From the IMG/VR virus record IMGVR_UViG_3300037420_001273: DNA of 64,000 nucleotides, one strand, 5' to 3'. This DNA comes from a virus. The notes beneath the pieces are model-generated. The model was not told the origin of the DNA, did no database searches, and was given only the letters and a program-made list of their open reading frames with translations. A program made the translations under genes and the position numbers. Positions 1,473 to 62,204 of this stretch are shown one piece after another (the stretch's first letter is position 1; the number at the start of each line of letters is the position of its first letter).

Positions 1473-1505
1473 GAAGTTAGATCGTACTACGAAGTTAGAA
1501 CGAAG
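1473..1505. promoter_or_regulatory. Dispersed motif instance (GTTAGATCG ... GTTAGAACG)
   Basis: gaagttagatcgtactacgaagttagaacgaag, abutting the start codon at 1469. Confidence 0.55.
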
Positions 1506-1526
1506 TGCAACGGAAAAACGAACGAT

Positions 1527-1727
1527 TTACTCGTTCAACCGTTGCTTGGCGACCTCTGTCGCATGGGCCTCGATCGCGGCGGACCAGAGGGCCCGCAGGG
1601 AGTCGCCGCGTCGGTACGTGATGCATATGCCGCGCACTTCCAGATCGAAGGGAAGAGACGGGAACGGCCACTTGTCCTTAGCTGCCTCGGCCTCGAGGTA
1701 GTCGAGGATTTCTTTGTCGCTCAGCAT
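1527..1727 (-). CDS. Hypothetical small protein
   Basis: 66-aa ORF. It is co-oriented with the operon and its start lies 7 nt inside the end of the upstream ORF. Confidence 0.5.
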   Translation of the reverse strand: MLSDKEILDYLEAEAAKDKWPFPSLPFDLEVRGICITYRRGDSLRALWSAAIEAHATEVAKQRLNE

Positions 1728-1963
1728 GTCAGCCTCGCTTTGACTGCCTTAGCTTGTTGCTTGCGGTGTTCTTGGATGATCCAGCGGAGGGCCTTGATCC
1801 TGCTCTTAGCTGGATGAATCTGAAGAGTTCCATAGGCCTGAATAGCACAGACCCAAAAGAACTCATGCTCCGCTACTGCCCACCAAAAACCACCGCGGCT
1901 TGACCACTTCCATGCACTGCCAAAGGGTCCCGGGTTACTTGCTGTACTCGACGGCATAGCCAC
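1721..1963 (-). CDS. Hypothetical Trp-rich small protein
   Basis: 80-aa ORF (WKWSSRGGFWWAVAEHEFFWVC). It overlaps the polymerase 3-prime end by 29 nt. The region is locally more AT-rich. Confidence 0.4.
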   Translation of the reverse strand: MAMPSSTASNPGPFGSAWKWSSRGGFWWAVAEHEFFWVCAIQAYGTLQIHPAKSRIKALRWIIQEHRKQQAKAVKARLTC

Positions 1964-3959
1964 CCTCAGCGTTCAGTGGAATATCTGCACACCAGGCCGG
2001 TGGCGTGCGCATCACCTTGACCATGAAGTCGACGGCCTTCTGACCAACGGCCTTCTTCGCCAATGACACGACCTCGTCGTGCGTGGTCATGACAACCTGG
2101 TACACCTTGTCGATCGCGAGCAGCTGGCCCATCACGACGATCTTGGCCAGCGCCTGGACGATGTTCTCGCACAGCTTGCCGCCGTACAGCTTCGTAACGC
2201 CGTCGCGTGAGTCATAGACCCACGCATGTTCGAACTCTTCATCAGGGATCTGACGCAGGTGCGGGTAGTGCAGCGTCATGCCGTCAGGCAGATAGACGGT
2301 CTCCTTGTCCCAGCTCAAGCACTTCCAGCTGCCGGCGCGACCGACAGCCATGTCGGAGATGATCCGCTCGCAGATCTTCCAGCCGATCTGGATCTTGCTG
2401 TTCTTGCGGCGGTATGCCTGCACCGCCATGCGGCACGTGTTCTCGTCGAGGAACACCGGCGGGCCCATCGTGCCGAGCGCGAGCGTGTTCTGGAACTTCT
2501 TCCAGGCCGCCTGGTAGCCGAGCATGAGCACGGCGACCTTGCCGACGAAGCGCTCGTCCTTGTCGCTCTTCTCGATACGCCGGCCGTAGATCTTGTCGCT
2601 CTGCTTGCAGTACGGGTCGCGGTCCGTGTGATTGTCCGCGTCGCGGAACTCCTGCAGCAGGTCGAGCTGGTCCCACAGCCACGCATTCATGCGTGCTTCG
2701 ATCTGGCTCGAGTCGCACACGGCCAGGACATAGCCCGGCGGGGCTTTGATCGTCTTGCGCAGCTCGCTGCCGCGGCGCAGGTTCTGGAAGTTCGTCCCGT
2801 CACCGCCTCCGAGCCGCTTGGTGTGCGCGCCGGCGTATTTGTAGTACACCGGCAGGGGCAGTCCGTTTGCACCGAGCTTGAGGAACGTCGCCGCGCGGGT
2901 CTCTGTCCCGCTTGACTTCACCATGAGGCGCGCTTCGACCAGGTCGCGCACGCGGTCGTTCGAGTTCTCGAGCAGCTCGGTGAAGTCCAGGTCCGTCTTG
3001 CTGAACGCGTAGGTGTACTTCTTCGCGTCGTCACGCTGATCCTTGGGCTTCTTGATCCACGCCGGGCTGATCTTCATCGGCGGCTCGATGCCCTCGGCGC
3101 GCAGCAGCTCGGCGTAGCGGTCAGAGCCGATCAGCTTCTTGACGCGACGGATCGTCAGCTGTTCCTCGGTCGCCGTGGGCCCGAGCTTCTTGCGGTCCTC
3201 GCTGGTCAGCTTGATGTCTGCGGCCAGGTCGGCGAACGAGAGCAGCAGGGTGCGCTTGCGTTCCAGCTCGCGCTCGAGCTCTGCCCGGCAGCGGGCTTCG
3301 TCGAGCTTGAGCGCTGGTTGCGTGTACATCCGGCAGATGATGTGGATGAGCTCGAGCTCGTCGGCCGGCATCATCGGGAGCATCTGCTCGAAGATGCGCC
3401 GGGTCTCCTCGCCGTCCTGCATGCAGTACAGCATCGCGCGCTCGAGCTTCGCCTTGTCCTTGGCGAGCTCGGCCCAGTGCATGCCTTTGAAGTCCTCGGT
3501 GCCGCTGGCTGCTTTGCCGCGGCCACCCAGGAAGCGAGCCACTTCGTCCAGGCCCGCGCCGATGGAGTTGCTGAACAGCCCGCGTGCCATCGACAACGTG
3601 CAGTACAAGCGCTTGGGCTTGATGCCGTAGTGGTGGCTCAGGATGAGCCCGTCGAACTGCGTGTGGTGGCACAGCAAGCTGTGCGTCTCCCACGGGATCT
3701 TGCGCAGCTCGGTGGCGATCTTCGGGCCTGGCACGACCTTGGCGGGCTTGTTGCCCACCTGCAGGTACACCATCAGGGCTTCGAAGCGCGGATCGCGCAC
3801 GTACTGCGACGTGGTCAGCTTCTTGAGCGTGTACGTCTCGTCATAGAACGACTCGAAGTCCAGCGTGACGAGCCGCGACCAGTCGACTTTCTCGGTCGGG
3901 AACACCGGCCGCTCGATCACGAGCGACGCCGGCTTCTTGATGGCGGAGGACCAGCCCAT
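1935..3959 (-). CDS. Family A DNA polymerase with 3-5 exonuclease domain
   Basis: Motifs read from the 702-aa ORF: ExoI-like LDFESFYD, motif A CDSSQIEARMNAW, motif B RFVGKVAVLMLGYQAAW, motif C TTHDEVV. The start was moved to ATG 3959 (MGWSSAIKK), just downstream of the upstream stop at 3965-3967. Confidence 0.92.
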   Translation of the reverse strand: MGWSSAIKKPASLVIERPVFPTEKVDWSRLVTLDFESFYDETYTLKKLTTSQYVRDPRFEALMVYLQVGNKPAKVVPGPKIATELRKIPWETHSLLCHHTQFDGLILSHHYGIKPKRLYCTLSMARGLFSNSIGAGLDEVARFLGGRGKAASGTEDFKGMHWAELAKDKAKLERAMLYCMQDGEETRRIFEQMLPMMPADELELIHIICRMYTQPALKLDEARCRAELERELERKRTLLLSFADLAADIKLTSEDRKKLGPTATEEQLTIRRVKKLIGSDRYAELLRAEGIEPPMKISPAWIKKPKDQRDDAKKYTYAFSKTDLDFTELLENSNDRVRDLVEARLMVKSSGTETRAATFLKLGANGLPLPVYYKYAGAHTKRLGGGDGTNFQNLRRGSELRKTIKAPPGYVLAVCDSSQIEARMNAWLWDQLDLLQEFRDADNHTDRDPYCKQSDKIYGRRIEKSDKDERFVGKVAVLMLGYQAAWKKFQNTLALGTMGPPVFLDENTCRMAVQAYRRKNSKIQIGWKICERIISDMAVGRAGSWKCLSWDKETVYLPDGMTLHYPHLRQIPDEEFEHAWVYDSRDGVTKLYGGKLCENIVQALAKIVVMGQLLAIDKVYQVVMTTHDEVVSLAKKAVGQKAVDFMVKVMRTPPAWCADIPLNAEGGYAVEYSK

Positions 3960-3964
3960 GCGAC

Positions 3965-4378
3965 TCAGTGTTCTTGTAGCAACAGCATGACGACGACATC
4001 GACCGGTGCAATCAACCCGTCGATCGCGAGCTCGAACGTCCACGTGCCTTTAGGGAAGTCCGTGTACTCGATAGTTCTCGTCCACGCCGCCGGCTCGTCA
4101 TCTGCCGAAGAAAGACTGAGCACTGCCGTGTTGTTTGAAGCCACGGCGATCGTCAGCATTCCGGTCGGGTTGCTTCTCGCTTCCCAGTCGCGCATGACGA
4201 GAGGTGCGGCTTCAGTGGCAACGATGTCGAGCAGCCAGTACGCGCCTGCCGATTCAGCCATTGCCTTGACGCCCTCGGTGTAGATGAACCGCTTGTTGAA
4301 CGGATGTCGATAGCGGCCGTCGCTGCCACCGAGGTACTGGTCCATGACGGCTTGAAGTTCTTGTGGTGTTGCGCTCAT
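3965..4378 (-). CDS. Hypothetical protein
   Basis: The start was taken at MSATPQELQ (ATG 4378). This forms an ATGA overlap with the stop of the upstream ORF (4375). Length is 137 aa. Confidence 0.65.
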   Translation of the reverse strand: MSATPQELQAVMDQYLGGSDGRYRHPFNKRFIYTEGVKAMAESAGAYWLLDIVATEAAPLVMRDWEARSNPTGMLTIAVASNNTAVLSLSSADDEPAAWTRTIEYTDFPKGTWTFELAIDGLIAPVDVVVMLLLQEH

Positions 4379-4572
4379 TCGTGATCCTCGAGCTGGTTCG
4401 ACACGGCGTCGGCTGCGTACTGGCACAGGCAGTACTCGTCGACGAGACGGCGGATCTCGTCGTACTCGCGCGAGCCGTCGTCCATCATCTGGCATGCCTT
4501 CTTGCGCGCGAAGTCAGCACGCGTCTGCAGTTTCTCGTGCGCCTTCTTCCTGTCCTCGCTGAGGTAGTTCAT
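4375..4572 (-). CDS. Hypothetical small protein
   Basis: 65-aa ORF, ATGA-coupled to the downstream gene. Its 5-prime end overlaps the ORF at 4514-4912, so the true start may be the internal MMDDG. Confidence 0.5.
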   Translation of the reverse strand: MNYLSEDRKKAHEKLQTRADFARKKACQMMDDGSREYDEIRRLVDEYCLCQYAADAVSNQLEDHE

Positions 4573-4912
4573 TGCTTGACACTCCTGTGATTCGGTTGAT
4601 CAGCTTCTTCATCCTCCGGCGCGCGTTTCGGTTCTCGTTGTTCTGCGCGGTTGTTAGTCTCGGCATCTGCACGTCGCGGCCCACGCCGAGCGAATACATC
4701 GCTGCGTAGCGTGTGCTGCCGCGCCCCGTCCCTTCGTGCCAGCCGCTGCGATAAATAGCCTTGCGCTTGTGCGCTGCTCGGATGTACTCGTACACCGTGT
4801 TGATCCGCAGGCCGGTGCGCTCTTGTAGCTCCTTCACCGTGCACGGGCCCTCGCTGAATGCGAGCAGGATCTCTGCGAACGCGATCGCGTTGTTGTTCGG
4901 CGGTCGTCTCAC
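4514..4912 (-). CDS. Putative helix-turn-helix / winged-helix DNA-binding protein
   Basis: 132-aa ORF with an HTH-like segment, CTVKELQERTGLRINTVYEYIRAAHKRKAIY. Its start is ATGA-coupled to the helicase stop (4909). Confidence 0.55.
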   Translation of the reverse strand: MRRPPNNNAIAFAEILLAFSEGPCTVKELQERTGLRINTVYEYIRAAHKRKAIYRSGWHEGTGRGSTRYAAMYSLGVGRDVQMPRLTTAQNNENRNARRRMKKLINRITGVSSNELPQRGQEEGARETADAC

Positions 4913-6714: not shown

Positions 6715-6935
6715 GTCCTAAGCCTCTCGGTGACTTCTGCGGCGAGCACGCGCTGGCATGCTTTGCACGTCGGCGTCTTGCTGGCTTGTCTCGGGTTCAC
6801 AGGCATGTGTCGGTCGCTACCGCAGCTGCATTCACGACACACGGCTGTGAGCGTGCGCTTGCGGTTCGTCCACACCCAAGTGAGATGCGTCTTCACTTCC
6901 TCTGCACTCCGTCTTGACAGTGTCCAGAGCCCCAC
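6711..6935 (-). CDS. Small Cys-rich (zinc-ribbon-like) protein
   Basis: 74-aa ORF with paired Cys motifs (CRECSCG ... CKACQ). It overlaps the nuclease 3-prime end by 43 nt. Confidence 0.5.
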   Translation of the reverse strand: MGLWTLSRRSAEEVKTHLTWVWTNRKRTLTAVCRECSCGSDRHMPVNPRQASKTPTCKACQRVLAAEVTERLRT

Positions 6936-7600
6936 GGGCCGTAGCCGCAGTACTGGCAGCTGAACACGTTCGCGTTGGTCGGGAACTCCGTTGCCGTGGT
7001 GATCTGCATGCCGCGGCGGTGAAAGTTCGACTTGAAGCGCAGCGCCTGGTCGCGCGTGAAGACCTTCTTCGTCGTGTCGTTCTGGTCGAAGTACCAGAGC
7101 TCCGTCTCCACCACCTCGAGCTTCGGGTAGCGCAGCACGGCGTTGAGCGCGTACAGCGTCATCTGTTCACCGTGCTTGACCTCGTTGCCGAACTTGCGGC
7201 CGGTCTTGTAGTCGATGACCGTGGCGTAGGTGTCGTCCCAGAACACGGTGGCGTCGAGCTTGCAGCGGTGCCAGGCCGTCTTCCAGTCCGTCGGCTCCCA
7301 CTCGTGATCGACAGCCCACTCGCCTTCGCAAGACACCAGGCCCTCCGCGTAGAGCACGCGCAACAGGTCGAGCTCGGGACCGAAATGCTTGGATGCCTCG
7401 GGTGCAAGGAGGTCGCTCTCGCCCTTGACGTACAGCTCCGCGCTGGCGTGGATGCGGGTGCCACGGTCGTTCGCGTGTTCCGTCTTGCCGGGAGGCAGGG
7501 GACGGACCGGCTCAGGGATGCGCTGGTCGCGCATGAGCCAGACGCGGTGCTTGCACTTGTCCCACTCAGCGAGGATGGAGTGACTCCAGGACTTGAGCAT
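6893..7600 (-). CDS. PD-(D/E)XK nuclease, Cas4/RecB-like with Cys cluster
   Basis: Core ATVIDYKTGRK (D/ExK), QxxxY motif EQMTLYAL, one N-terminal Cys (KCKHR) plus C-terminal CQYCGYGPWGSGHC, as in Cas4-type Fe-S nucleases. Confidence 0.85.
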   Translation of the reverse strand: MLKSWSHSILAEWDKCKHRVWLMRDQRIPEPVRPLPPGKTEHANDRGTRIHASAELYVKGESDLLAPEASKHFGPELDLLRVLYAEGLVSCEGEWAVDHEWEPTDWKTAWHRCKLDATVFWDDTYATVIDYKTGRKFGNEVKHGEQMTLYALNAVLRYPKLEVVETELWYFDQNDTTKKVFTRDQALRFKSNFHRRGMQITTATEFPTNANVFSCQYCGYGPWGSGHCQDGVQRK

Positions 7601-7611
7601 GTTGGAGTGTC

Positions 7612-7640
7612 GTAGTTAGATCGAAACACGATCTTAGACC
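7612..7640. promoter_or_regulatory. Dispersed motif instance
   Basis: gtagttagatcgaaacacgatcttagacc, just upstream of the nuclease gene start (7600). Confidence 0.55.
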
Positions 7641-8284
7641 AAAACACCCTCGGATTCATAGAGGTGGCGAGCGACTGCGGGGATGCGCTGAACGAAGCGT
7701 TCTTCGGTCCAGCACCAGCGCCTTTCGGCGTACTTCATCGTGTTCGCGATGGAGCTGATGTCGTTGATCTCGAAAGCGTGGGCAAGGGTACTGTGCAAAC
7801 CCCAACTGCTGACCCAGTGTTCCTTGTCTGTTAACTTCGACGCCACATACGCAACCTTGAAGATCTCTGTGATCTTCGCGATCAGTGCCTTGCGCCTGGC
7901 GGAGTCGATCTTTTTCCGCACCGGCGGGTCGAGCACGATGATGCTTCCGGCGGCATCGATCAGCAGGCGGCTGGTTGTATCGAACCTAGCGCCTTTGATT
8001 TTGCTCAGCGTGAACACGGTGCCGCCAGTGATCGATCGCTTTTTGCGGTCGAACTGCAAACCGACGTAGCTGCCGACGCGTCTGTCCCAGACAGCACACT
8101 GTGCGTATTGCTTGAACGGCGGCGGAACCGTGACGATGATCTCGCCGTTGGGCTTCCACCGCAGCGTCTCGTGCTTGTCGTACAGCAGCAGGATGTCGTC
8201 GTTCTGCGCACGAACGAGACAAGTGCAGTAGCTGAGCGGGCAGCCGATTGGGCCGCAGCGAGAGGACGCGTTGTTGTAGTTCAT
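7634..8284 (-). CDS. Hypothetical protein
   Basis: The start was taken at MNYNNASS (ATG 8284), which is ATGA-coupled to the upstream 57-aa ORF. Length is 216 aa. Confidence 0.65.
   Translation of the reverse strand: MNYNNASSRCGPIGCPLSYCTCLVRAQNDDILLLYDKHETLRWKPNGEIIVTVPPPFKQYAQCAVWDRRVGSYVGLQFDRKKRSITGGTVFTLSKIKGARFDTTSRLLIDAAGSIIVLDPPVRKKIDSARRKALIAKITEIFKVAYVASKLTDKEHWVSSWGLHSTLAHAFEINDISSIANTMKYAERRWCWTEERFVQRIPAVARHLYESEGVLV

Positions 8285-9966: not shown

Positions 9967-9970
<4 letters not shown>
8846..9970 (-). CDS. Zincin-like metallopeptidase (HExxH) fused to von Willebrand factor A domain
   Basis: HEVGH lies in the N-terminal half. A MIDAS-like VTVIDTSGSID and GGGGTDF lie in the C-terminal half. 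This architecture matches the metallopeptidase-VWA partners of MoxR ATPases (DUF2201-like, from memory). Confidence 0.85.
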
Positions 9971-10274
<304 letters not shown>

Positions 10275-10278
<4 letters not shown>

Positions 10279-10514
10279 TTGCGCTGTCTGTAGGAACAGT
10301 TGATGATGAACAACACGGCTGCCGTGTTGAGCTTCACGGTGCCACACTTATCGAGAACGGTGCTCGATGTAGGACCGTTCAAAGCGATCTCGCCGAGACC
10401 CTTCGTAGTGCCCCAATTGCGGACGACGCTTGCCTTCTCGAGTGTCTGCGCGTCAGCTTGTAGCTCTCCAATGAGCACCCAGCCGTTCGTGAGCACCACG
10501 ATCTTCTCGTTCAT
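10275..10514 (-). CDS. Hypothetical small protein
   Basis: 79-aa ORF (IVVLTNGWVLIGEL ... NWGTTKGLGEIALNGP). It is ATGA-coupled at both ends. Confidence 0.6.
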
Positions 10515-12675: not shown

Positions 12676-14112
12676 TTACACCTCGAGGCCGGCGTTGCGC
12701 AGCTTGGTCAACAGCTGCTCGGTCTCGGCGGAGGCGGTGCGCCGCACCAGCTCTTGCATCGTCGAGTCGACGGTCGGCTCGATGTCGCTGAGCTCGCTCT
12801 GCTCCTTGAGCAGGTTCAGCTGCATGCGCATGGTCTTCGCCGCCTCGACGAGCGCCTGCTCGCTCAGCTGCTTGACCTTCTCGCCCGGCTGCTGCAGGCG
12901 CAGCTGCGCCAGCTTCGCACGTTTGACCACCTCGGCGATGACCGCCGGGATGTGGCCCGCGAGCAGCTCACCGGCCTTGGTCAGGTCGGTGGCCTGGTCG
13001 ATCGACTCGGCGCCGTAGTGGCGCAGCAGCTTCTCGACCGCCTTCGCGTCCGGCGGCGTGACGTCGATCACGGCATCCAGGCGACCCGGGCGCAGCATCG
13101 CGGCGTTGATCTTCTTGAGCTCGTTCGTCGTCAAGACGACGATGAGATTCGCGCTCTTCGTGTCGATGCCGTCGATGATGTTGAGGATGTCGTCCATCGC
13201 GACGTCACGCTCGCCGCTGAGCGCGCGGTCGATGTCTTCGCAGAAGATCACGCAGGCCGGGCTCTGGTATTGCTTGGCGAACTCGATTGCGTCGGGCAGC
13301 TCGTCGGCGCGCGGTACATACAGGTACGTGATGCCGTGGTCGACGGCCAGCTTCGAGGCCACGCGGGCGGCCAGCGTCTTGCCGGTGCCGTAGGTGCCGC
13401 CCAGCAGCACGCCGCGCTTGATCGTCAGGCCGTTGTCGATGCAGTCCTGCACGCGCTCGATCGGCGTGAACAGGCTGGTCTCGACGGCAGCCATGACGTC
13501 GTCGCTGTAGATCAGCTGCTCGCGGCGGATGTCGGACGTGTCCATGAACTTCGGCTCGGGCATCTCCAGCGCCTGGCCGTTGTCGTCCTTGAAGCGCATC
13601 TTGATCGCCTGACCACGGTACAGGCTGAACTCGGCGGCTTCGCGACGCAACTCCTCGAAGATCTTCTGGATCGTCGCCTCGTCCTTGCGCTTGACGTTGG
13701 CCGACAGGTGGAACACGAACCGCGCGCCCTTCTTGCCGACGCCGGTTTGCAGCAGGCCGTCGACCTTGGGCAGGCTGAACGAGCCCCAGGGGACCTGGAT
13801 CTTGGAGGTCGGGCCGGTGTCGATCGAGATCAGCTGCGGCGGCTGCGGGCCGAAGAAGCCCGGGGTGGCGGTTGCGGCTGACCAGCCGAACTTGCGCGTC
13901 AGCACGCGATCCAGCAGGTACGCACCGTCCCAGGGGAAGACGTCGAACGTCTCCTGGATGCCGACGGCTTCCTCGAGGAACTGCTGCCGGCGCTTGAGCA
14001 GCTCGATCGCGTCGGTGATCGGCATGCCCTCGGGGAGGACCATCTTCTCGCCGTGGTAGACGATGTCGGCCACATGGGCCTGCGGGCCCGCATCTTTCAG
14101 GTTCTTGCTCAC
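12676..14112 (-). CDS. AAA+ ATPase (classical AAA clade, single ATPase domain with N-terminal extension)
   Basis: Walker A GGTYGTGKT, Walker B VIFCEDID, sensor-1 VLTTN, Arg-finger region LRPGRLD. The start is GTG, overlapping the upstream stop (GTGA). Confidence 0.88.
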   Translation of the reverse strand: MSKNLKDAGPQAHVADIVYHGEKMVLPEGMPITDAIELLKRRQQFLEEAVGIQETFDVFPWDGAYLLDRVLTRKFGWSAATATPGFFGPQPPQLISIDTGPTSKIQVPWGSFSLPKVDGLLQTGVGKKGARFVFHLSANVKRKDEATIQKIFEELRREAAEFSLYRGQAIKMRFKDDNGQALEMPEPKFMDTSDIRREQLIYSDDVMAAVETSLFTPIERVQDCIDNGLTIKRGVLLGGTYGTGKTLAARVASKLAVDHGITYLYVPRADELPDAIEFAKQYQSPACVIFCEDIDRALSGERDVAMDDILNIIDGIDTKSANLIVVLTTNELKKINAAMLRPGRLDAVIDVTPPDAKAVEKLLRHYGAESIDQATDLTKAGELLAGHIPAVIAEVVKRAKLAQLRLQQPGEKVKQLSEQALVEAAKTMRMQLNLLKEQSELSDIEPTVDSTMQELVRRTASAETEQLLTKLRNAGLEV

Positions 14113-14279
14113 GTAGGTTTCCTTCTTTCGGTCGATTGCAGGAGTGCCTTCTTGACCAGCTCGACCTGGTACCGTTCAAGAAGTCTTTGCGCGAATGCTT
14201 CGCCTTTGGCTGCGCGTTCTTGGGCTATGAAGTCATACGCCTCGCGTGCCTTGAACCAAGCGTCTATGTCGAATCTCAC
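14109..14279 (-). CDS. Hypothetical small helical protein (56 aa, below ORF-track cutoff)
   Basis: Own translation from GTG 14279: (M)RFDIDAWFKAREAYDFIAQERAAKGEAFAQRLLERYQVELVKKALLQSTERRKPT. There is a GTGA overlap with the AAA gene start and a GAAGG sequence upstream. Confidence 0.4.
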   Translation of the reverse strand: MRFDIDAWFKAREAYDFIAQERAAKGEAFAQRLLERYQVELVKKALLQSTERRKPT

Positions 14280-14293
14280 TTAGACCTTCGATT

Positions 14294-15322
14294 TCAGGTC
14301 AACACCTCGTGGTTCTTCACAGCCCAGTTCGTGAACGCCTTCGACTTGCTGATGCTCTCGTCGCGACGCACGCTGTCGCGCACGAACACGACCTGGAACT
14401 CCTCGGGCAGGCGCGAGGTGTACTGCATCAGAATGTCGAAGTTGTCCGGGGTGGCGCGGATGGCCAGGCTCGTGGTCAGCGCGTAGAGCACCGCCGGCTT
14501 GTCGCGGCCGGGCACCGGCGCTTCCTTCGGCTTGAGCATGATCACGTCCGGGTGGGGCAGCTCGCGGTACACGTTCAGGAACGTGAGGAACTCACCCGCA
14601 GCGCCTTCGCCGACGGTGCCCTTGAGCACCTCGCGCTCGACCGCCGGCGGCAGGTGGTTCTTGATGATGTCGTTGACGAACATCCAGCTGCGCGGGCTCG
14701 GAAACGCGCGCGGGTTGCTCGCAGCGTCGAATGAGTGCAACAGGTTCGACTTGAAGCGCAAGAACGCGAGTACCTCCTCGTGGATGCCGTTCTTGAGCGC
14801 CCAGTCGCTGAAGTCGTCCAGGTTCACCTCGAAGTCGAGGTGGATGAACCGGTTCGCCAGCGCGGCGGGCATGGCGTGTACGACCGAGCGGTCACTGGCA
14901 CGGTTGCCGGCGGCGATGATCGACCAGCCGTCGGGCAGGACGTACTCGCCGATGCGGCGGTCGAGGATGAGCTGGTAGCCCGCGGCCTGCACCGACGGCG
15001 GAGCGCTGTTCATCTCGTCGAGGAACAGCACGCCTTCGGACTCGTTCGGCACTTCCTTCGATCCCTTCTTGACCGTCATCGGGGGCAGGAAGTCCGGCGG
15101 CAGCCAGCTCATGACCTTCTTGACGGTGTCGGGCACGGGGAAGCCCTTCAGGTCGACCGGGTCGAGCAGGCTCATGCGCACGTCGCGGAACTCCTTGCAC
15201 TGGCTGTCGGCGACTTGGCGAGCGACAGCGGACTTGCCGACGCCGGGCGGGCCCCAGATGAAGACGGGGCGCTTCTTCTCGATGGCGACGTTGAGGGCCT
15301 TGGCGATGTCAGACGGTTTCAT
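14294..15322 (-). CDS. MoxR-like AAA+ ATPase
   Basis: Walker A GPPGVGKS, Walker B VLFLDEMNSA, IIAAGN sensor region. The 342-aa size is typical of MoxR/AAA_5 proteins that pair with VWA proteins. Confidence 0.88.
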   Translation of the reverse strand: MKPSDIAKALNVAIEKKRPVFIWGPPGVGKSAVARQVADSQCKEFRDVRMSLLDPVDLKGFPVPDTVKKVMSWLPPDFLPPMTVKKGSKEVPNESEGVLFLDEMNSAPPSVQAAGYQLILDRRIGEYVLPDGWSIIAAGNRASDRSVVHAMPAALANRFIHLDFEVNLDDFSDWALKNGIHEEVLAFLRFKSNLLHSFDAASNPRAFPSPRSWMFVNDIIKNHLPPAVEREVLKGTVGEGAAGEFLTFLNVYRELPHPDVIMLKPKEAPVPGRDKPAVLYALTTSLAIRATPDNFDILMQYTSRLPEEFQVVFVRDSVRRDESISKSKAFTNWAVKNHEVLT

Positions 15323-15356: not shown

Positions 15357-15605
15357 TCAGTCTTTTATGAGCTGCAGGTATGCGATCGCAGCTTCCTTGG
15401 TGTCGAAGCTTGGGTTGCTGATGCGTTCGTTTAGCGCTGGTATGTCCGAAACGATCCACCAGCGGTTGTCGTCAATGAAGCGCACAACGACAACAACGAT
15501 TCCCTTGATATTCCACTCTCCTTCGGTGTGGAGAAGCACGTCGTAGTGCCTGCCGAAAGGGCCGTAACTCAACGGCGGATTGCGTATCTGCTGTTCGATC
15601 TTCAT
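15357..15605 (-). CDS. Small paralog family member 1 (WW ... FDTxEAA motif)
   Basis: 82 aa. It contains NRWWIV ... SFDTKEAAIAYLQLIKD. See the paralog-array finding. Confidence 0.6.
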   Translation of the reverse strand: MKIEQQIRNPPLSYGPFGRHYDVLLHTEGEWNIKGIVVVVVRFIDDNRWWIVSDIPALNERISNPSFDTKEAAIAYLQLIKD

Positions 15606-15838
15606 GCCAGCAACCTCAGTGCGGCGTAGGCTGCTTCAGCGGTATCGAACGGGTCGATGTCTTCGAAGCGCTTCTCGTCGTGGGAATCGTCGGGAACAAT
15701 CCACCATTTATTGTCGGTTGCGAGTTGAGTAACGACGCAGTCGATGCCTTTGATCTGCGTGTTGAAGCTGTTGTCGTAGAACAGGTATACAACCGTGGTG
15801 CCGCGATGCGGTTCGCAGGCCGGTTTGAGCTTGAGCAC
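15602..15838 (-). CDS. Small paralog family member 2
   Basis: 78 aa with a GTG start. It contains NKWWIV ... PFDTAEAAYAALRLLA. Confidence 0.6.
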   Translation of the reverse strand: MLKLKPACEPHRGTTVVYLFYDNSFNTQIKGIDCVVTQLATDNKWWIVPDDSHDEKRFEDIDPFDTAEAAYAALRLLA

Positions 15839-15839
15839 C

Positions 15840-15995
15840 TTAGACCCCGAGACGAGTCTTCAGCGAGGCCAGCTCGATGGCCTTACGCTCGGCGTACTTC
15901 GGGTCTTTGGCCGCCTTGGCCTCGTCGATCGTGAAACGCTCGAGGGCGTGGCGGCGGCGTGCTTGGTGTGCTTGGGAGAGGGGTGCCTTCTTCAT
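15840..15995 (-). CDS. Hypothetical small basic protein
   Basis: The start was moved to MKKAPLS (ATG 15995) with GGAG upstream. The longer ORF-track version reads through the intergenic TTAGATCGAAC motif. Confidence 0.4.
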   Translation of the reverse strand: MKKAPLSQAHQARRRHALERFTIDEAKAAKDPKYAERKAIELASLKTRLGV

Positions 15996-16013
15996 GGCCT
16001 TGTAGGCTCCAAA

Positions 16014-16040
16014 GGTTAGATCGAACGAAGAGATTAGATC
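16014..16040. promoter_or_regulatory. Dispersed motif instance
   Basis: ggttagatcgaacgaagagattagatc, upstream of the ATG at 15995. Confidence 0.55.
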
Positions 16041-16073
16041 ATGCGACGAAGCGCGTGGTCTACTGGTTTTCAC

Positions 16074-16313
16074 TCACTGGCGTAGCGTGCGTGCAACTTC
16101 TTGCGCAAGGTGATCTCGCGCTGCAGCGATGTAGAGGCGCATGGCAGTGATCGTGTAGTACTGCAGATACGGAAACTCGCTGCGATAGAAATGTTGAGGG
16201 CAGAGGCTCCGCATACGCCGGCGTGTGCGTCGGTTGAGCAGCAACGTGATCGTCGGCGGCTTAGCTCGGTCGCACCTGGCTTCGAGCGTGTCGAGGAACT
16301 CGTGGTCAGTCAT
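16074..16313 (-). CDS. Hypothetical small protein
   Basis: The start was taken at MTDHEF (ATG 16313), which forms an ATGA overlap with the upstream stop. Length is 79 aa. Confidence 0.5.
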   Translation of the reverse strand: MTDHEFLDTLEARCDRAKPPTITLLLNRRTRRRMRSLCPQHFYRSEFPYLQYYTITAMRLYIAAARDHLAQEVARTLRQ

Positions 16314-16537: not shown

Positions 16538-16722
16538 TTCTTCACCGGCGCTTGATGCTTCGCCCATTCTTCGAGCTGCTCTGCCGTCATCTCCTTGGGG
16601 CAGTACTCGAGCATGAGCGCATCGATCCTGGCTTGAAGAGCTTGCGCGTCTTCGTAGCGCACGTAACGGCCGTCTTCACGAACGACCATCGCGACATTGG
16701 GCTCGGGGTTGAATCGAATCAT
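16534..16722 (-). CDS. Hypothetical small protein
   Basis: The start was taken at MIRFNPEP (ATG 16722, ATGA overlap). Length is 62 aa. Confidence 0.5.
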   Translation of the reverse strand: MIRFNPEPNVAMVVREDGRYVRYEDAQALQARIDALMLEYCPKEMTAEQLEEWAKHQAPVKK

Positions 16723-51850: not shown

Positions 51851-52873
51851 ATGTCCAGCTTCCCGCTGCCTGACCCGCCCAGCACTGTTGCCTACGCGGT
51901 CACTGCCGCGAGCCGCATCTTCAACGGCTTGTGGGAGACCGCGCAGGAGAAGTCCGTCAAGTTCGACGCGCGCCTGGATGACACAACGGCGAACGTCCCG
52001 GCGTCGATGGCGCTGGCGCCGGCGCCCGTGATCTCCGGCTTCACCACTCCGACGTTGCCGACGCCGCCCACGAGCATGAACGCCTCTGACCTCGAGGCGC
52101 TTTACAACAACAATGTGAGCGCGCTGGAAGAGCTGCTGGTCAGCTCTTACTCGGACTACCTGGCTACTTACTTCCCAGCTGGGACGTACTTGTCGCAGGC
52201 TCAGTCGTGGATCGAAAACGTGCTGAGCACCGGCGGCACTGGCGTGAATCCGACCGTCGAGGCGCAGCTGTGGGAGCGAGATCGCGCGCGTGTGCTGCAA
52301 GAAGCCGCCCGCATGGAGGAGGAGCTGCTGACGACCTGGGCTGGTCGGCGCTTCCCGCTGCCGCCTGGCGCACTCACGTATCAGGTCCTGCAAGTCCGCA
52401 AAGACTCCTCGGACAAGATCGCCGAGAGCTCGCGCAACACGGCGATCAAGGTCTACGAGATTCAGGTAGAGCAAGCGCGTTTTGCCGTTCAGCAGGCGCT
52501 TGCGCTGCGACAGCAGGCCGTGCAGGCGGCAGGGGAATACATGCGCAATCTGGCGTTGGCGCCGCAGATCGGCGCGACGCTCGCCGCAGCTCTCGCTGAT
52601 GCGCAGGCTCGCCTGGCCAGCGTGACGACGGAGTACTACAAGGCACTGATCGCTGCGCAGGAGATCCCTCTGCGCGTAGCGACCACGAACGCCGAGCTGG
52701 CGGTGCGCGTCGAAGAGCTGCGCGGCCGGCTGGATGTGGATCTGATCGACAAGCGCGTTCAGGCAGCGATCGGCGCGGCTCAGATGTACAGCACGCAGGC
52801 GGCGGCGGCCTTCAACGCGCTGCACAGCCAGGCTGCCATCAGCTCGAGCGACAGCGTGAGCACTTCGCTCTAA
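51851..52873 (+). CDS. Virion internal protein candidate
   Basis: 340 aa, helical and Ala/Gln-rich. Confidence 0.65.
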   Translation: MSSFPLPDPPSTVAYAVTAASRIFNGLWETAQEKSVKFDARLDDTTANVPASMALAPAPVISGFTTPTLPTPPTSMNASDLEALYNNNVSALEELLVSSYSDYLATYFPAGTYLSQAQSWIENVLSTGGTGVNPTVEAQLWERDRARVLQEAARMEEELLTTWAGRRFPLPPGALTYQVLQVRKDSSDKIAESSRNTAIKVYEIQVEQARFAVQQALALRQQAVQAAGEYMRNLALAPQIGATLAAALADAQARLASVTTEYYKALIAAQEIPLRVATTNAELAVRVEELRGRLDVDLIDKRVQAAIGAAQMYSTQAAAAFNALHSQAAISSSDSVSTSL

Positions 52874-53058
52874 CGGAAGAAGAACTGACCGATGCCGACG
52901 AACAACCCGATTGCTGTTGCGACGGCGAAGATCGCCCAGAGCAGCCACTGCGCCCAGCGCCGCGGCTGCTCAAGGTACCAGTTCTTGTTGTCCAGCAGCG
53001 ACTGGATCTCCTGGATAGGTTGAGGCGTCAGCTCTTCGACCACGTTCTTGAGTTTCAT
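52870..53058 (-). CDS. Small C-tail-anchored membrane protein on opposite strand
   Basis: The start was taken at MKLKNVVEEL (ATG 53058). It has a C-terminal TM helix, WLLWAIFAVATAIGLFVGIGQFFF. It is convergent with the upstream plus-strand gene, with a 4-nt overlap. Confidence 0.45.
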   Translation of the reverse strand: MKLKNVVEELTPQPIQEIQSLLDNKNWYLEQPRRWAQWLLWAIFAVATAIGLFVGIGQFFFR

Positions 53059-53085: not shown

Positions 53086-53112
53086 ATCGTACAATCTAAG
53101 TTAGATCGAAGG
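53086..53112. promoter_or_regulatory. Dispersed motif instance merged with ribosome-binding site
   Basis: atcgtacaatctaagttagatcgaagg, continuing agtcccg to the ATG at 53120. Confidence 0.55.
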
Positions 53113-53119
53113 AGTCCCG

Positions 53120-54889
53120 ATGGCCAGTCTGCGAATCCCCGTTGGCGAGGCAACCGAGATCAACCCGGAGCGCATCAACGTCGGCCCTGACGGCCGCGCC
53201 ATCCCCTCGATGGAGCCGAAGCCGCTCGGCGCCCGCGGCCCGCAGTTCAACCGCACGATGGTCGGCTCCACGCCGGCGCCTACCGCGCCCGCACAGGTGG
53301 CCACGACTCCAGCGGCGGCTCAATCCCTGCGTACCCGCGTGGCCACGGGCGTCGGCCGCACCGTCGGCTCGGCCGCGCGCGTCGCGCTTTCGCCCGCCGC
53401 GCTTCTCGGCGCTGCTGCGACCAGCGGCTACGGCACGTACCACATCAACGATCCCGAGATCGACTCGTCGGCCGGCGGGACGCTGAACTACATCAAGAAC
53501 GGCGAGGGCGGCAAACTCCTTCGCTCGCTCTCCAACGGCGCCCTCGAGACCGGCCTGGACCTGGCGCACGGCGGCGCCGGCATGATCGACTCGATCGCCG
53601 GCACGCACCTGCAGCAGAGCCTGCGCGATCGCGTCCAGTCCGACCTCGGTGACCAGATCCGCATCGGCCAGCCCGCCGCGGCTGCTGCCGTCGCACCGGC
53701 GTCGCCTGCGGGCAGTGCGAACCCGGCTCAGGAGAACTTCCGCGCGGCGGAGCTGGCTGGCGCCAGCCCCAGCGCCCCGTTGCAGACGCAGGAGGCGAAC
53801 TACCAGAGCCCGGCGCTGCGCAATGTCAGCACGATCCCTGGCACCAGCACGGCGGACACGCTGCGACAGATCGACACGATCCGCGGCTTGGGCGGCAATC
53901 CGATGGACCCGTACGGCTCCGGCGCTCACGGTCCCGACGGCTCCGGCGGGCTGGCCAGCATCGGCTCTGGCGGCTCGATCTCGAGCGACGCACATGCCAA
54001 GTTCGATCAATTCGCGCAGCGCGAAACCCTGCGTGGTCAGATCCGCGATGCGCTGTCGAGCCGCAATCCGCACGACCGCGCAGCGGCGATGCAGCTCGCC
54101 GGCCAGGCCGAAGGAATCGCCGGTAACGAGCGCGTGGCGGGGCTTCGCGAAGCCGGTGAAAACGCGCGCGCCTCGGCCCAGCTCGGCTTGTCGCGCTACC
54201 TCGGCGACCGCAACGCCCAGCTGCAACTGCGTGGGCAGGACATCACGCGCGAGGGCCACATGATCAACGCTGCCGGCCAGCGCGCGCAGCTGCTCTACAA
54301 CATCAACAAAGACCAGCGCGACTTCAACCTGCGCAAGGACGAGGTCGACAACGCCGAGCGCGAGCGCGGCCAGAAGAGCATCAGCGACTGGTTGCAGTCG
54401 TCGTTCCAGACGACCGACGCGAACGGCAAGGCGGTGCCCGACAGCGCGCGCATCGCTTCGTTCACCCAGGCGTCCACCCGCATGCTGGGCAACGTCATCA
54501 ACCAGTTCAAGAACGACCCGGACCCGGCCAAGCGGGCCTACGCCGAGAAACTGTCGAAGCAGGGCCTGCAAGCGCTCGACCCCGAGGACCGCGCCGCGAT
54601 GCTCACGCTGTTCGGCCGCATGGAGCGCTTCCAGCAAGCGCGCAGCGGCATCGTGCCGGGCACCGCCAGCGGGGCGGTCTCAGGCAGCCTGAATGACTAC
54701 GAGATCGTCGGCCACGAGCCCGGGCTGCTGCAGGACCGCTACCGCCTGCGCGGCGGCCAGTCGATCCCGGTCAATGACGTGCGCTACCGCGAGGGCCCGG
54801 CGAACCTGGTCCTGCCTGACGTCGGGAAGACCCCGACCACTGACCTCGGTCCGACCCCGCAGGAGCGCGAGCGCCTGCGCCAGCGATAA
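53120..54889 (+). CDS. Virion internal / ejection protein candidate
   Basis: 589 aa. The motif plus GAAGGAG lies upstream. Confidence 0.72.
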   Translation: MASLRIPVGEATEINPERINVGPDGRAIPSMEPKPLGARGPQFNRTMVGSTPAPTAPAQVATTPAAAQSLRTRVATGVGRTVGSAARVALSPAALLGAAATSGYGTYHINDPEIDSSAGGTLNYIKNGEGGKLLRSLSNGALETGLDLAHGGAGMIDSIAGTHLQQSLRDRVQSDLGDQIRIGQPAAAAAVAPASPAGSANPAQENFRAAELAGASPSAPLQTQEANYQSPALRNVSTIPGTSTADTLRQIDTIRGLGGNPMDPYGSGAHGPDGSGGLASIGSGGSISSDAHAKFDQFAQRETLRGQIRDALSSRNPHDRAAAMQLAGQAEGIAGNERVAGLREAGENARASAQLGLSRYLGDRNAQLQLRGQDITREGHMINAAGQRAQLLYNINKDQRDFNLRKDEVDNAERERGQKSISDWLQSSFQTTDANGKAVPDSARIASFTQASTRMLGNVINQFKNDPDPAKRAYAEKLSKQGLQALDPEDRAAMLTLFGRMERFQQARSGIVPGTASGAVSGSLNDYEIVGHEPGLLQDRYRLRGGQSIPVNDVRYREGPANLVLPDVGKTPTTDLGPTPQERERLRQR

Positions 54890-60805: not shown

Positions 60806-60806
60806 C

Positions 60807-61856: not shown

Positions 61857-61867
61857 GTCTCTCTATA

Positions 61868-61999
61868 CCCTTGTTCTAAAGTTCTGTTCCATTCTTACTT
61901 TCTTATGTGAGAAAAAATAATAGATATTCATAATATATTAAGGGTCCACAAGAGTCTCCTATAAAGATGTTCGCGGTGGAACAGAACTTTGGTACGGAG
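61868..61999 (+). repeat. AT-rich structured element, copy B (22-position closing stem around an 87-nt AT-rich interior)
   Basis: The left arm 61869-61890 pairs with the right arm 61978-61999 (17 Watson-Crick pairs, 3 G:T, 2 mismatches). It shares conserved boxes with copy A at 20390-20564. Confidence 0.8.
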
Positions 62000-62062
62000 C
62001 CTTTCACACACGTGTGGGCTCTTCGCTGCGTCACGACACGCGGTCTCTAACGGCGGTGAAGA

Positions 62063-62072
62063 TGGCGGTACA
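62063..62072 (+). promoter_or_regulatory. Putative integrase arm-type site (TGGCGGTACA), left arm
   Basis: The identical 10-mer recurs at 62245-62254 on the other side of the att core. A related cggcggtg lies at 62051-62058. Confidence 0.5.
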
Positions 62073-62107
62073 GCGCTAAGTGCGCGCCGCTGCTTCAGTT
62101 CTTCCGC

Positions 62108-62152
62108 CTCTTAATCCGTTGGTCGTAGGTTCGAATCCTACAGGGCCCACCA
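62108..62152 (+). other. attP core: 3-prime 45 nt of a tRNA-Lys(CUU) (anticodon loop to CCA), not an intact tRNA gene
   Basis: ctcttaa (loop, anticodon CTT), tccgt, tggtc, gtagg-ttcgaat-cctac (T arm), agggccc-a-cca. The 5-prime anticodon-stem strand, D arm and 5-prime acceptor strand are missing upstream. Confidence 0.8.
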
Positions 62153-62187
62153 AAATTTCCTTGTGGATCAGGCACTTAGCGACACCG

Positions 62188-62204
62188 TCGAAGTGCGATC
62201 TAAC
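62188..62204. promoter_or_regulatory. Dispersed motif instance between att core and int
   Basis: tcgaagtgcgatctaac. Confidence 0.5.

Follow-up and report, generated by a model that had tools for sequence, protein, structure and literature searches.

Genome Context and Enrichment of the Decamer

The window (the whole 64,000-nt stretch of viral DNA analyzed here) is a nearly complete genome of an uncultured, temperate, podovirus-like phage of Burkholderiales hosts, laid out as an integrase and two divergent arms; the integrase gene (62287–63423) marks the phage as temperate. Genomes of this group are strongly mosaic, the left arm being almost unrelated among relatives with a common head module. 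Pseudomonas phage KPP25 is a distant relative that lacks the motif described below. Intergenic DNA accounts for 4,227 nt (6.6% of the window; GC 56%).

The recurrence of the decamer TTAGATC[GT]AA (TTAGATCKAA), reported in the initial annotation, is real. Over the whole window there are eight exact matches vs. 0.01 expected, and 25 matches to GTTAGATCGAAC with ≤2 mismatches vs. 3.07 expected; the top over-represented 10-mer is AGTTAGATCG. Under a Markov model trained on the intergenic 4,227 nt only (1000 simulations), the degenerate palindrome TTMGATCKAA occurs seven times exactly (0.018 expected, simulation maximum 1) and 14 times with ≤1 mismatch (0.45 expected, simulation maximum 3), and the top intergenic hexamers (TTCGAT, TCTAAC, TTAGAT, and TAGATC) are all motif-derived. 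The composition of AT-rich spacers, which had been named as the explanation that would dispose of the motif, thus does not account for it.

Box Grammar and Phasing

Although the single 10-mer had been taken as the unit, the arrays are built from phased 5-bp boxes. The decamer marks the place where boxes TC(T/G)AA and their complement TT(A/C)GA meet in alternating orientation, and the full form of the array is TTCGATCTAA-s-TTAGATCGAA. Across 93 distinct intergenic sites from the window and its relatives, the extended consensus TCnAAc|TTCGATCTAAsTTMGA consists of alternating inverted 5-mers. The spacing of neighboring 10-mers peaks sharply at 11 bp (13 cases), followed by 7 bp (four) and 18 bp (three), and these spacings are nearly missing from shuffles. 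A distance of 11 bp corresponds to one helical turn.

The central GATC, earlier read as a Dam-type site, arises simply where a TTAGA box abuts a TCGAA box. A Dam-type methylation switch coupling expression to replication is highly improbable: GATC is central in the commonest form of the motif, but no DNA methylase or methyltransferase was found among the window's proteins, only about 20 of the 459 GATC sites spread throughout the window lie within the motif, and functional-looking variants without GATC occur (TTAGAACGAA, TTCTATCTAA, and TCTAAsTTAGA arrays). We also counted against it that Dam is not known to be typical of Burkholderiales.

Among 80 intergenic sites, 53 are oriented toward a gene start and 27 the other way; this use of both orientations is easier to reconcile with a dyad site than with an RNA signal or a simple promoter. 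The bias with transcription is 2:1 overall and, by a hand tally of site contexts, approximately 13:3 in the early arms. A pure dyad operator does not predict such a bias, which speaks against operators.

Sites in the Two Arms

Sequences as described in the initial annotation are present at every coordinate that it listed. In the left arm and the divergent control region, the sites are:

1472–1507, plus strand: composite site of two units, GTTAGATCGTAC and GTTAGAACGAAG, 18 bp apart, filling the gap upstream of leftward gene 1044–1469 (DUF7307/Pam3 gp33-like).
7611–7646, plus strand: composite site GTTAGATCGAAA ... CTTAGACC, 18-bp spacing, upstream of leftward PD-(D/E)XK nuclease gene 6893–7600.
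14269–14291, unstranded: weaker box cluster TCGAATCTCACTTAGACCTTCGA between leftward genes 14109–14279 and 14294–15322.
16011–16046, plus strand: composite site GGTTAGATCGAAC GAAGAGA TTAGATC upstream of small leftward gene 15840–15995.
20291–20320, plus strand: composite site TGTAGATCGAAC GAAGACG TTAGAAC upstream of primase/helicase gene 17905–20283.
21656–21685, plus strand: composite site AGTAGATCGAAC GAAGAGA TGCGAAC upstream of a small leftward ORF (ATG 21645).
22794–22811, plus strand: degenerate copy GTTCAGATAGAACG directly after hairpin 22809–22835, about 35 nt ahead of the Shine-Dalgarno (SD) sequence and ATG of leftward gene 22346–22759.
23410–23427, plus strand: copy ATGAGATCGAAC directly after a GC-rich hairpin (about 23426–23450), about 33 nt ahead of the SD and ATG (23377) of the first leftward gene.
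23648–23678, minus strand: two 10-mers, TTCGATCGAA and TTCTATCTAA, 11 bp apart, in the divergent control region, with an A/T tract upstream.

The early-arm consensus GT(T)AGATCGAACGAAGAnnTTAGAAC proposed previously is correct, with two units 18 bp apart at five composite sites (1472–1507, 7611–7646, 16011–16046, 20291–20320, and 21656–21685), and neither of the leftward genes starting at 1469 and 7600 has an SD sequence, as had been noted. The cluster at 14269–14291 was missing from the earlier site list. Orthologous sites occur upstream of the orthologue of 1044–1469 in L197 and L198 (also composite), before the primase orthologue in L006, and, for 21656–21685, at L006 4278; the 7611–7646 site is retained in a 96%-identical variant, in which one change there is toward consensus.

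In the right arm, outside the capsid promoter, the sites are:

25764–25781, unstranded: TTAGATCTAA, a perfect palindrome within the large terminase gene, at codons S-I-L-D-L-T.
32166–32186, plus strand: copy AATCGAAGTAAGATCGAAAC at the stop codon of 31793–32176, upstream of the capsid terminator/promoter; common to the window, L006, and L007.
36731–36750, plus strand: weak copy CGAACGACGATCGAAGGAGG that leads into the SD of gene 36759–37067.
40263–40287, plus strand: copy GTTAGATCGTCAGTCGAACGG inside the 5′ end of gene 40214–41377 (codons T-L-D-R-Q-S-N), facing leftward moron 39620–40135.
41370–41397, minus strand: box array GATCTAAC-GTCTAAC-GAAGATC with a 7-bp period, in a gap of 20 nt ahead of gene 41398–43692, which starts with GTG.
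44741–44778, plus strand: array TCGAAT|ATCGAAG|TTAGATC|GAAC, then TATAAT, 7 nt, and the ATG of gene 44779–46029; downstream of the lysis genes and terminator-like hairpin 44685–44705.
46524–46558, plus strand: array ATCGAAG|CTCTTAG|TTAGATC|GAAGGAA, overlapping hairpin 46512–46532 and running into the SD of gene 46559–47002.
53086–53113, unstranded: near-complete 21-bp dyad TACAATCTAA-G-TTAGATCGAA running into GAAGGAG, between divergent genes 52870–53058 (leftward small membrane ORF) and 53120–54889.
62188–62208, minus strand: copy TCGAAGTGCGATCTAAC, lying 83 nt ahead of the integrase gene.

Weak copies lie at 22797, 36738, and 52861. The perfect palindrome previously assigned to 25769–25778 is present, but it lies within terminase coding sequence, and relatives preserve its peptide context (...SILDLTAK...) with synonymous substitutions; the palindrome is probably a chance product of coding, outside the box system. 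Membership of the coding-region copy at 40263–40287 is uncertain. The abutment of start codons holds at most sites, although it is partly a by-product of very short intergenic gaps.

This placement bears on the possibility that the motif acts in mRNA, as an unstructured A/U-rich element 5′ of the ribosome-binding site that serves as a translation or inter-cistron processing signal, with enhancement or regulation through, e.g., S1 or a phage RNA-binding protein. Most copies precede start codons by 6–20 nt, in many cases fused to GAAGGAG or standing in for the SD, late sites show less structure than their shuffles (z = +1.0 to +1.6), and the start-associated sequences of Cluster K mycobacteriophages provide a precedent for a start-linked repeat without a known reader (PMC3203893). 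We nevertheless regard an RNA signal as unlikely: relatives carry these boxes in promoter spacers that are not transcribed, genes are preceded by copies in either orientation, and the asymmetric form is reversed between the capsid leader (TCTAACTTCGA) and the region before 44779 (TCGAAGTTAGA). Phasing at 11 bp reflects the DNA helix, spacing to the ATG varies between 0 and about 100 nt, inspection by eye gave no convincing pairing with the 16S 3′ end, and folding was no better than in shuffles at 11 of 12 sites, which disfavors the RNA-structure or processing role suggested earlier.

The Capsid Promoter Module and Promoter-Like Hexamers

Two features lie at the capsid gene:

32238–32286, plus strand: capsid promoter module.
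32357–32372, minus strand: pair of boxes, TCTAAcTTCGA, within the 5′ leader of the capsid gene, followed 18 nt later by the ATG.

In the module, terminator hairpin 32238–32262 holds the −35 element TTGTCA (32247–32252) in its loop and is followed by a T-run, TTCGAT, the −10 element TACATT (32271–32276), and TCGATCTAAC, which covers the discriminator/+1 region. In a simple sigma70 scan this was the sole sensibly placed sigma70-like match in the window, and no canonical sigma70 promoter was detected at the other motif sites. Sixty-five distinct relatives retain the architecture (hairpin with TTGnnn loop, T-run, TAnnnT, and conserved leader). Where the boxes fall around it differs: downstream of the −10 for the window's subgroup, in the spacer separating −35 from −10 for L017, L025, L037, L041, L046, L049, L067, and L069, and nowhere for other relatives. 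The box pair at 32357–32372 occupies the position of a terminator-like third hairpin found in most relatives.

At many sites the TA of TCTAA starts a good −10-like hexamer (TACACT, TATAAT, TAAGAT, or TAAAAT), an observation that speaks against operators. On the sense strand of 20291–20320, TTCGATC-TACACT is followed after 11 nt by ATG. In the divergent control region, the −10-like TAAGAT (23671–23676) lies 8 nt ahead of the ATG (23685) of the terS-like first right-arm gene, and the arrangement GATC-TAnnnT, 6–8 nt, ATG before this gene is common to the window and L006, L025, L038, L050, L056, and L193; its occurrence in seven phages suggests that the boxes may be part of a promoter.

A phage-specific promoter, one of the roles suggested earlier, is a live if somewhat doubtful alternative: the motif would form the core of promoters that belong to the phage but are used by host RNA polymerase, perhaps with a phage specificity factor. 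TTCGATC would then span about −19 to −13 with a −10-like TAnnnT behind it, and transcripts would have very short leaders or be leaderless. Consistent with this, T stands at hexamer position 6 in 53 of the 93 intergenic sites (p about 5e-11 vs. 25%), the hexamers include TACACT (five), TATAAT (two), and TAAGAT (three), sites directly behind terminator-like hairpins leave little other promoter room, sites are preferentially oriented to downstream genes, the ‘wrong-way’ copies at 40263 and 53101 face leftward morons, and canonical sigma70 promoters are otherwise nearly missing. However, the next box largely explains the position-6 T, since G at +14 (58/93) and A at +15 (50/93) are equally enriched. 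One third of sites are directed away from any gene, box position relative to the conserved capsid −10 differs between relatives, no convincing −35 was seen by eye at the right spacing, and neither a sigma factor nor an RNA polymerase was detected among the proteins of the window. In addition, a host-polymerase feature should not be patchy among relatives with common host orders.

Conservation and Candidate Readers

The motif occurs in 48 of 93 related loci, with at least two sites in 27, and its presence among the 93 is independent of portal similarity. Such patchiness would be expected of a motif that moves together with a regulator gene, and not of one that mirrors host RNA polymerase. The check in related phages that had been proposed bore the motif out: boxes stand at orthologous places in about half of the 93 loci, and sites are kept there although the proteins are only 46–76% identical. 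In relatives, the boxes recur around the capsid promoter, ahead of the first right-arm gene, behind terminator-like hairpins, and immediately 5′ of SDs.

Given the mosaicism of these genomes, the repeats might mainly be recombination linkers or boundaries at gene junctions that promote modular exchange, with regulation secondary. Copies flank the lineage-specific insert 31249–32176 and adjoin morons 39620–40135 and 52870–53058, and Cluster O repeats flank an inserted gene (PMC4351075). We consider this very unlikely: repeats of 10–20 bp offer little length for homologous exchange; recombination does not require dyad grammar, helical phasing, or a fixed relation to the capsid −10; and sites at orthologous positions are conserved without gene replacement.

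Both orientations, 11-bp phasing, orthologous conservation, and the shifting box position around one conserved capsid promoter, which takes in its untranscribed spacer, uphold the earlier proposal of a DNA-level dyad element tied to gene starts and promoters, and we infer that a protein reads it. The two helix-turn-helix proteins put forward as readers do not fit: homologues of 31518–31814 occur in two of the 93 related loci and 4514–4912 has none beyond near-identical copies of this phage, vs. 48 loci with the motif. Both thus fail the co-occurrence test, and no reader protein was found.

Proposed Function as Operator Arrays

The sites lie over the capsid discriminator/+1, over the −10 of the first right-arm gene promoter, after terminator-like hairpins (1519–1537, in the sense direction at 1472–1507; 22809–22835; 32238–32262; 44685–44705; 46512–46532), and in short gaps of both arms. 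We give an even chance to the leading explanation, that the boxes are operator arrays on double-stranded DNA for one putative phage-encoded, module-specific DNA-binding regulator, which would probably bind as a dimer and cooperatively. Because the sites are on or beside the starts of transcription units, occupancy would control initiation; bound regulator might also block read-through as a roadblock. Control would be exerted at about 15–20 places at once, and would most likely hold the prophage silent or set the timing of early and late expression. Enrichment, box grammar, conservation at orthologous sites, variable box position at the capsid promoter, the dyad between divergent genes, patchy presence among relatives, and a temperate phage without a detected RNA polymerase or sigma factor all favor this explanation. 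The operator-at-promoter arrangement is directly seen at one or two places only.

Comparison With Known Systems

On the operator reading, the boxes join a kind of phage control element already known from stoperators and the Cluster O dyad repeats, with a new sequence and in a new phage group. P1 C1, IncP KorA (operator GTTTAGCTAAAC), and pSM19035 omega are each a single regulator with many short operators that overlap the −10 or −35 of scattered promoters, with omega binding arrays whose 7-bp units are oriented directly or inversely. The system described here differs in box sequence, 11-bp phasing, and positions just upstream of SD sequences, and no C1, KorA, or omega homologues were detected for the window phage.

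Like the start-associated sequences (SAS/ESAS) of Cluster K, the boxes form a conserved repeat a few nucleotides from start codons, there found across subclusters (PMC3203893). The Cluster K SAS, however, is asymmetric, contains the SD, and has one orientation in the non-structural half only, whereas the boxes have dyad symmetry and occur in both arms and both orientations, with some copies in untranscribed promoter DNA. The 17-bp dyad repeat of Cluster O mycobacteriophages, TGTTCGGNNNCCGAACA, to which no reader or function has been assigned, is likewise a short dyad in tens of copies, between ORFs or near ORF ends in both transcription directions (PMC4351075). Its sequence and host differ, and it is invariant and single, whereas the boxes described here are degenerate, are strung into phased arrays, and coincide in part with identifiable promoter elements.

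The stoperators of Cluster A mycobacteriophages, bound by L5 gp71-type repressor, are proposed to silence initiation and elongation (PMC9283540). They resemble the boxes in comprising >20 short sites across a temperate phage genome, at promoters and in short intergenic gaps of both arms, with orientation correlated with transcription (PMC9283540). The host and phage type are unrelated (here Burkholderiales, podovirus-like), and no gp71-like protein was detected in the window. Cluster A stoperators are 13-bp, asymmetric, monomer-bound, and strictly orientation-dependent, whereas the sites described here are dyad box arrays with a 2:1 bias.

Genome Organization and Relatives

The 64-kb window represents a near-complete phage genome (GC ~63%) with two divergent arms, in which genes at 1-23,400 run leftward and those from 23,685 onward run rightward:

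1-23,400, leftward: family A DNA polymerase, SNF2 helicase, and PD-(D/E)XK nuclease
Left arm, leftward: DUF2201 metallopeptidase/VWA protein, two AAA ATPases, and a DUF5906 primase-helicase
From 23,685, rightward: terS-like gene, large terminase, P22-type portal, scaffold, and adaptor
32390-33502, rightward: major capsid gene
Right arm, rightward: M15 endolysin, spanin-like gene, and tail and injection proteins, including an 1824-aa protein
62287-63423, rightward arm: tyrosine integrase

A nucleotide search returned no matches to the window among cultured phages; the nearest of these are the Pseudomonas phages KPP25 and phiR18, with 45-48% protein identity (terminase, portal). IMG/VR holds 327 portal relatives, from which 80 loci (61-77% identity) were retrieved, and prophage copies are present in genomes of Burkholderiales and Rhodocyclaceae (Herminiimonas, Janthinobacterium, Verminephrobacter, Polaromonas, and Caldimonas). 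Orthologues of the leftmost window genes are located, in relatives, ~8 kb downstream of the 1824-aa gene; thus, the window ends are joined in the circular map, with a few kb absent from the window. Left arms of relatives, sought via the primase, AAA ATPase, and DNA polymerase genes, yielded either nothing or a motif-free different phage group. Just upstream of the portal gene is an HNH endonuclease-like ORF (27454-28083; HVDHIVPL...NLQLL..KANRQKGN), which was found in only 4 of 93 related loci.

Enrichment and Structure of the Motif

The near-palindromic decamer TTAGATC[GT]AA, which the initial annotation described as dispersed over about 20 sites, is genuinely recurrent: TTAGATCKAA occurs eight times in the window vs. 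0.01 expected, GTTAGATCGAAC occurs 25 times with ≤2 mismatches vs. 3.07 expected, and AGTTAGATCG is the top over-represented 10-mer. The enrichment persists under a stricter composition control, namely a Markov model of intergenic DNA alone (4,227 nt, GC 56%; 1000 simulations), by which TTMGATCKAA is present in seven exact copies vs. 0.018 expected, and in 14 copies with ≤1 mismatch vs. 0.45 expected (maximum of 3 in 1000 simulations). The top intergenic hexamers are each a fragment of the motif, and the density of TCTAA is ~48-fold higher in intergenic than in coding DNA. Exact 14- and 15-mer motif strings gave matches in IMG/VR that are almost all due to chance, in unrelated contigs.

The coordinates and early-arm consensus originally reported were correct on re-check, and most of the listed sites hold up, apart from a few weak copies and those at 25769 and 40267, which lie within coding sequence. 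The copy at 25769, previously singled out as a perfect palindrome, falls in the terminase gene and encodes SILDLT, a peptide that is kept in relatives with synonymously changed codons. There are ~15-20 sites in both arms, nearly all intergenic, and the presence of the integrase places these dispersed sites in a temperate phage.

When 93 distinct intergenic sites, drawn from both the window and its relatives, were pooled, the consensus lengthened to TCnAAc|TTCGATCTAAsTTMGA, a series of the 5-bp boxes TC(T/G)AA and TT(A/C)GA whose orientation alternates. Each site is a degenerate palindrome and the extended consensus a dyad; the full dyad, TTCGATCTAA-s-TTAGATCGAA (21-bp sequence: TTCGATCTAAGTTAGATCGAA), is nearly intact at 53086-53113 in the window, as well as upstream of the capsid genes of three relatives (L032, L038, and L051). 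Neighboring 10-mers most often lie 11 bp apart (13 distinct cases); smaller peaks fall at 7 bp and at 18 bp, the 18-bp class comprising the five composite early-arm sites; almost no neighbors at such spacings occur in shuffled controls. A T at position 6 of the hexamer (53 of 93 sites) was considered as independent evidence of a -10 element and rejected: the G (58/93) and A (50/93) of the following box are enriched to a matching degree, so the T mostly reflects box grammar.

The central GATC, formerly read as a Dam-type site, is the junction of a TTAGA box with a TCGAA or TCTAA box. A methyltransferase was not found among the window proteins (Pfam, PHROGs), and GATC is frequent throughout the window (459 vs. 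277 expected). Motif variants lacking GATC occur, and GATC is thus not essential to the motif.

Promoter Context and Conservation

A scan of the window identified TTGTCA-18-TACATT (32247-32276), upstream of the major capsid gene, as the only sensibly placed sigma70-like promoter, the other two matches being inside or antisense to genes. Only 32247-32276 passes the scan for sigma70 -35 and -10 hexamers 16-18 bp apart; at the other box sites a -10-like TAnnnT is present and a -35 is absent. Alignment of 65 distinct capsid-upstream regions showed that this promoter is kept across the clade, in the order: hairpin with a TTGnnn loop, T-run, TAnnnT hexamer (TAGAAT, TACACT, TACATT, or TATCAT), ~110-nt leader, Shine-Dalgarno sequence (SD), and ATG. 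In the subgroup that includes the window, TCGATCTAA directly follows the capsid -10. In eight relatives (L017, L025, L037, L041, L046, L049, L067, and L069) box arrays such as ATCTAAg|CTCTAAa|TTAGATt occupy the -35/-10 spacer, flanked by a -35 of TTGACA or TTGATC, and many other relatives have the capsid promoter without any boxes.

Elsewhere, the first right-arm gene of the window and six relatives is preceded by an A/T tract, GATC-TAnnnT, 6-8 nt, and the ATG. Terminator-like hairpins directly precede five sites, and the late sites at 44741, 46524, and 53086 (the last between divergent genes) share an array of two forward boxes and one reverse box just 5' of the SD.

The conservation check proposed in the initial annotation came out positive, with composite or single sites at orthologous positions in phages whose proteins are only 46-76% identical to those of the window: before the primase gene (L006), before the DUF7307 gene (L197, L198), and in the capsid leader (L003, L006, L067, L074, and L193). 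Boxes are present in 48 of the 93 related loci, with at least two sites in 27, and their presence is unrelated to portal similarity. The motif marks probable transcription-unit boundaries, and can guide the annotation of starts that have no SD.

Recognition Level and Function of the Boxes

Recognition as double-stranded DNA is favored over recognition at the RNA level, because boxes lie in untranscribed promoter spacers, occur in both orientations (53 sites toward genes, 27 away), and are phased in a manner that matches the DNA helical repeat. The suggestion of RNA processing or translation signals fares poorly, in that 11 of 12 sites fold as RNA with no more stability than shuffled sequences (late sites being worse); no Rfam covariance model matched the window at gathering thresholds.

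We favor the reading of the boxes as promoter-associated operator arrays, at about even odds. It draws on the dyad grammar and phasing, the variable position of the boxes around a conserved -10, their patchy distribution (48/93 loci), and the absence of a phage RNA polymerase or sigma factor (none among ~90 ORFs using Pfam and PHROGs, by which a novel factor could escape). The patchy distribution suggests that boxes are carried along by a regulatory module that phages exchange, and are not a reflection of the host polymerase. The main rival, which is not mutually exclusive with operator arrays, is that the boxes constitute the promoter core proper; this we regard as unlikely. A good -10-like hexamer often starts at the TA of TCTAA, its distance to the ATG is conserved before the first right-arm gene, orientation is biased (2:1 overall, ~13:3 in the early arms by our tally), and at some sites the gap from terminator to start codon leaves no room for another promoter. 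However, promoters of a phage-encoded RNA polymerase or sigma factor (T7-, SPO1-, or T4-late-like) would be expected to be uniformly oriented toward the transcribed genes and fixed in position relative to the start, whereas a third of the sites have the opposite orientation and the offset from the capsid -10 varies among relatives. Judged by eye, none of the alternative sigma consensus sequences (ECF/RpoE GGAACTT-N16-TCTRA, sigma54, and sigma28), the IHF, H-NS, and boxA motifs, or complementarity to the 16S 3'-end fits the spacing.

No protein that might recognize the boxes was identified, either by searching all ORFs against Pfam and PHROGs or by co-occurrence of window proteins with the motif among related loci. 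Two helix-turn-helix proteins had been put forward. The wHTH-like protein at 31518-31814 has a weak PHROG regulator match and homologues in only 2 of 93 loci; the wHTH at 4514-4912 has a weak Sulfolobus_pRN match and TFE-like PDB matches (E ~0.3), with homologues only in near-identical copies of the same phage (5.8 billion proteins). On this distribution neither can be the conserved reader, and either could be a local one. A wHTH-like ORF of one relative with an orthologous site (L198) was also brought into the comparison, and showed no similarity. The 21-bp dyad offers a ready bait toward the regulator.

The operator arrays might form part of stoperator-like genome-wide control in temperate podoviruses of Burkholderiales that make up a large uncultured clade. 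Such a system would be built of 5-bp boxes, with dyad arrays phased at 11 bp and fused to promoter -10 elements, and one regulator would both gate initiation and block read-through; leaderless or near-leaderless mRNAs would serve to express several genes, the first right-arm gene among them, and the regulator and box type would be swapped among relatives as an "immunity-like" module. As a combined scheme, we consider this improbable.

Capsid Leader and Other Features

The capsid 5' leader (32277-32389, ~110 nt) is structured and conserved in at least 28 diverse relatives (same region compared in L003-L081, L188, and L193). The 4-6 bp stem of hairpin 1 varies in sequence, and many of the changes are compensatory (for each of four pairs, both sides are changed in 8-18 sequences and pairing is broken in at most one), whereas its loop, C(A/C)CGA(C/A)A(G)C, is nearly invariant. 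Hairpin 2 has the loop (G)ACGACA(C) on a variable stem, and in most relatives a third hairpin combines a GNRA tetraloop with a U-run, and is terminator- or attenuator-like. A conserved CCUUCG pairs with the SD in MFE folds. The leader has no Rfam match, and seems to serve the late operon as a riboregulator, or as a leader of the antitermination type, that has yet to be described.

Further features of the window are:

39620-40135, minus strand: leftward moron within the rightward late operon; from the translation, the product is predicted to be secreted, with a signal peptide at its N-terminus and a PEP-CTERM-like sorting signal at its C-terminus (...VPEPEQWMLLAAGLMLLPPLVRRR)
52870-53058, minus strand: second small leftward ORF (62 aa) between late genes, divergent from the dyad site 53086-53113, with a hydrophobic C-terminus and good coding statistics
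15357-17675, minus strand: small early genes, at least five of them, that form a tandem paralogous family and share (from translations) the C-terminal motif ...W(W/I)(I/V)...(P)(F/Y)DT.EAA..A(L/V).L(L/I), with no Pfam or PHROG match
9967-10347, minus strand: ORF with a long low-complexity (GNGYGYGDGD)-type repeat, of which CCGTTGCCGT and GCCGTAGCCG are among the most over-represented 10-mers of the window
23578-23607: strong hairpin with a 13-bp stem (TGGGGGTGTAAA...TTTACACCCCCA), located midway through the divergent control region and followed on the minus strand by a T-rich tail; it suggests that a boundary element, or a short transcript running leftward, lies between the arms

The TTAGATCGAA motif is absent from KPP25, which has its own over-represented word, TGTTACGAAATT(T) (4-6 copies), and a long CCAGCC-type coding repeat. 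In motif-negative relatives no other dispersed repeats were found, only local iteron-like arrays; those of L010 (2966-3223; eight GATTGGAAG copies in both orientations) and L039 (5753-5817; six tandem 13-bp GTACGTATTGCTC repeats) are possibly replication origins.

Comparison With Known Systems

The stoperators of Cluster A, the repeat of Cluster O, and the start-associated sequences (SAS) of Cluster K phages are closest in behavior to the window element; analogies may also be drawn to the global operators of P1 C1 and IncP KorA and to the omega heptad arrays. Operators and stoperators of Cluster A mycobacteriophages are asymmetric, monomer-bound, and strictly oriented (PMC9283540). Their sites, more than 20 in number, are spread over the promoters and short intergenic gaps of phages that are temperate, and the window phage shares this arrangement, whereas its site is a dyad with an orientation of 53:27. 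Pfam and PHROGs gave no match to a gp71-like immunity repressor; a few kb of the genome lie outside the window, and small repressors are easily missed. Cluster O phages carry a dispersed 17-bp dyad repeat of unknown function (PMC4351075), and the window motif resembles it in being both dispersed and dyad-symmetric. Cluster K SAS are asymmetric 13-mers that contain the SD and are linked to start codons, lying 3-7 bp before them in one orientation and in the non-structural half only (PMC3203893); unlike these, the window motif has another sequence, is a dyad, and occurs in both arms at variable distance.

The cis-regulatory element is real and is conserved across the clade. No description of its sequence, grammar, or host group seems to exist, since a literature search for the motif strings yielded nothing relevant (primers only). 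The motif provides a sequence handle on, and an entry point into, regulation in a widespread uncultured phage group. If the roadblock or the leaderless aspect is true, a mode of genome-wide silencing studied until now in mycobacteriophages would extend to Gram-negative phages. The window element fails the defining features of each of these families, and belongs with them in a broader category, that of short regulator sites scattered over a phage genome.
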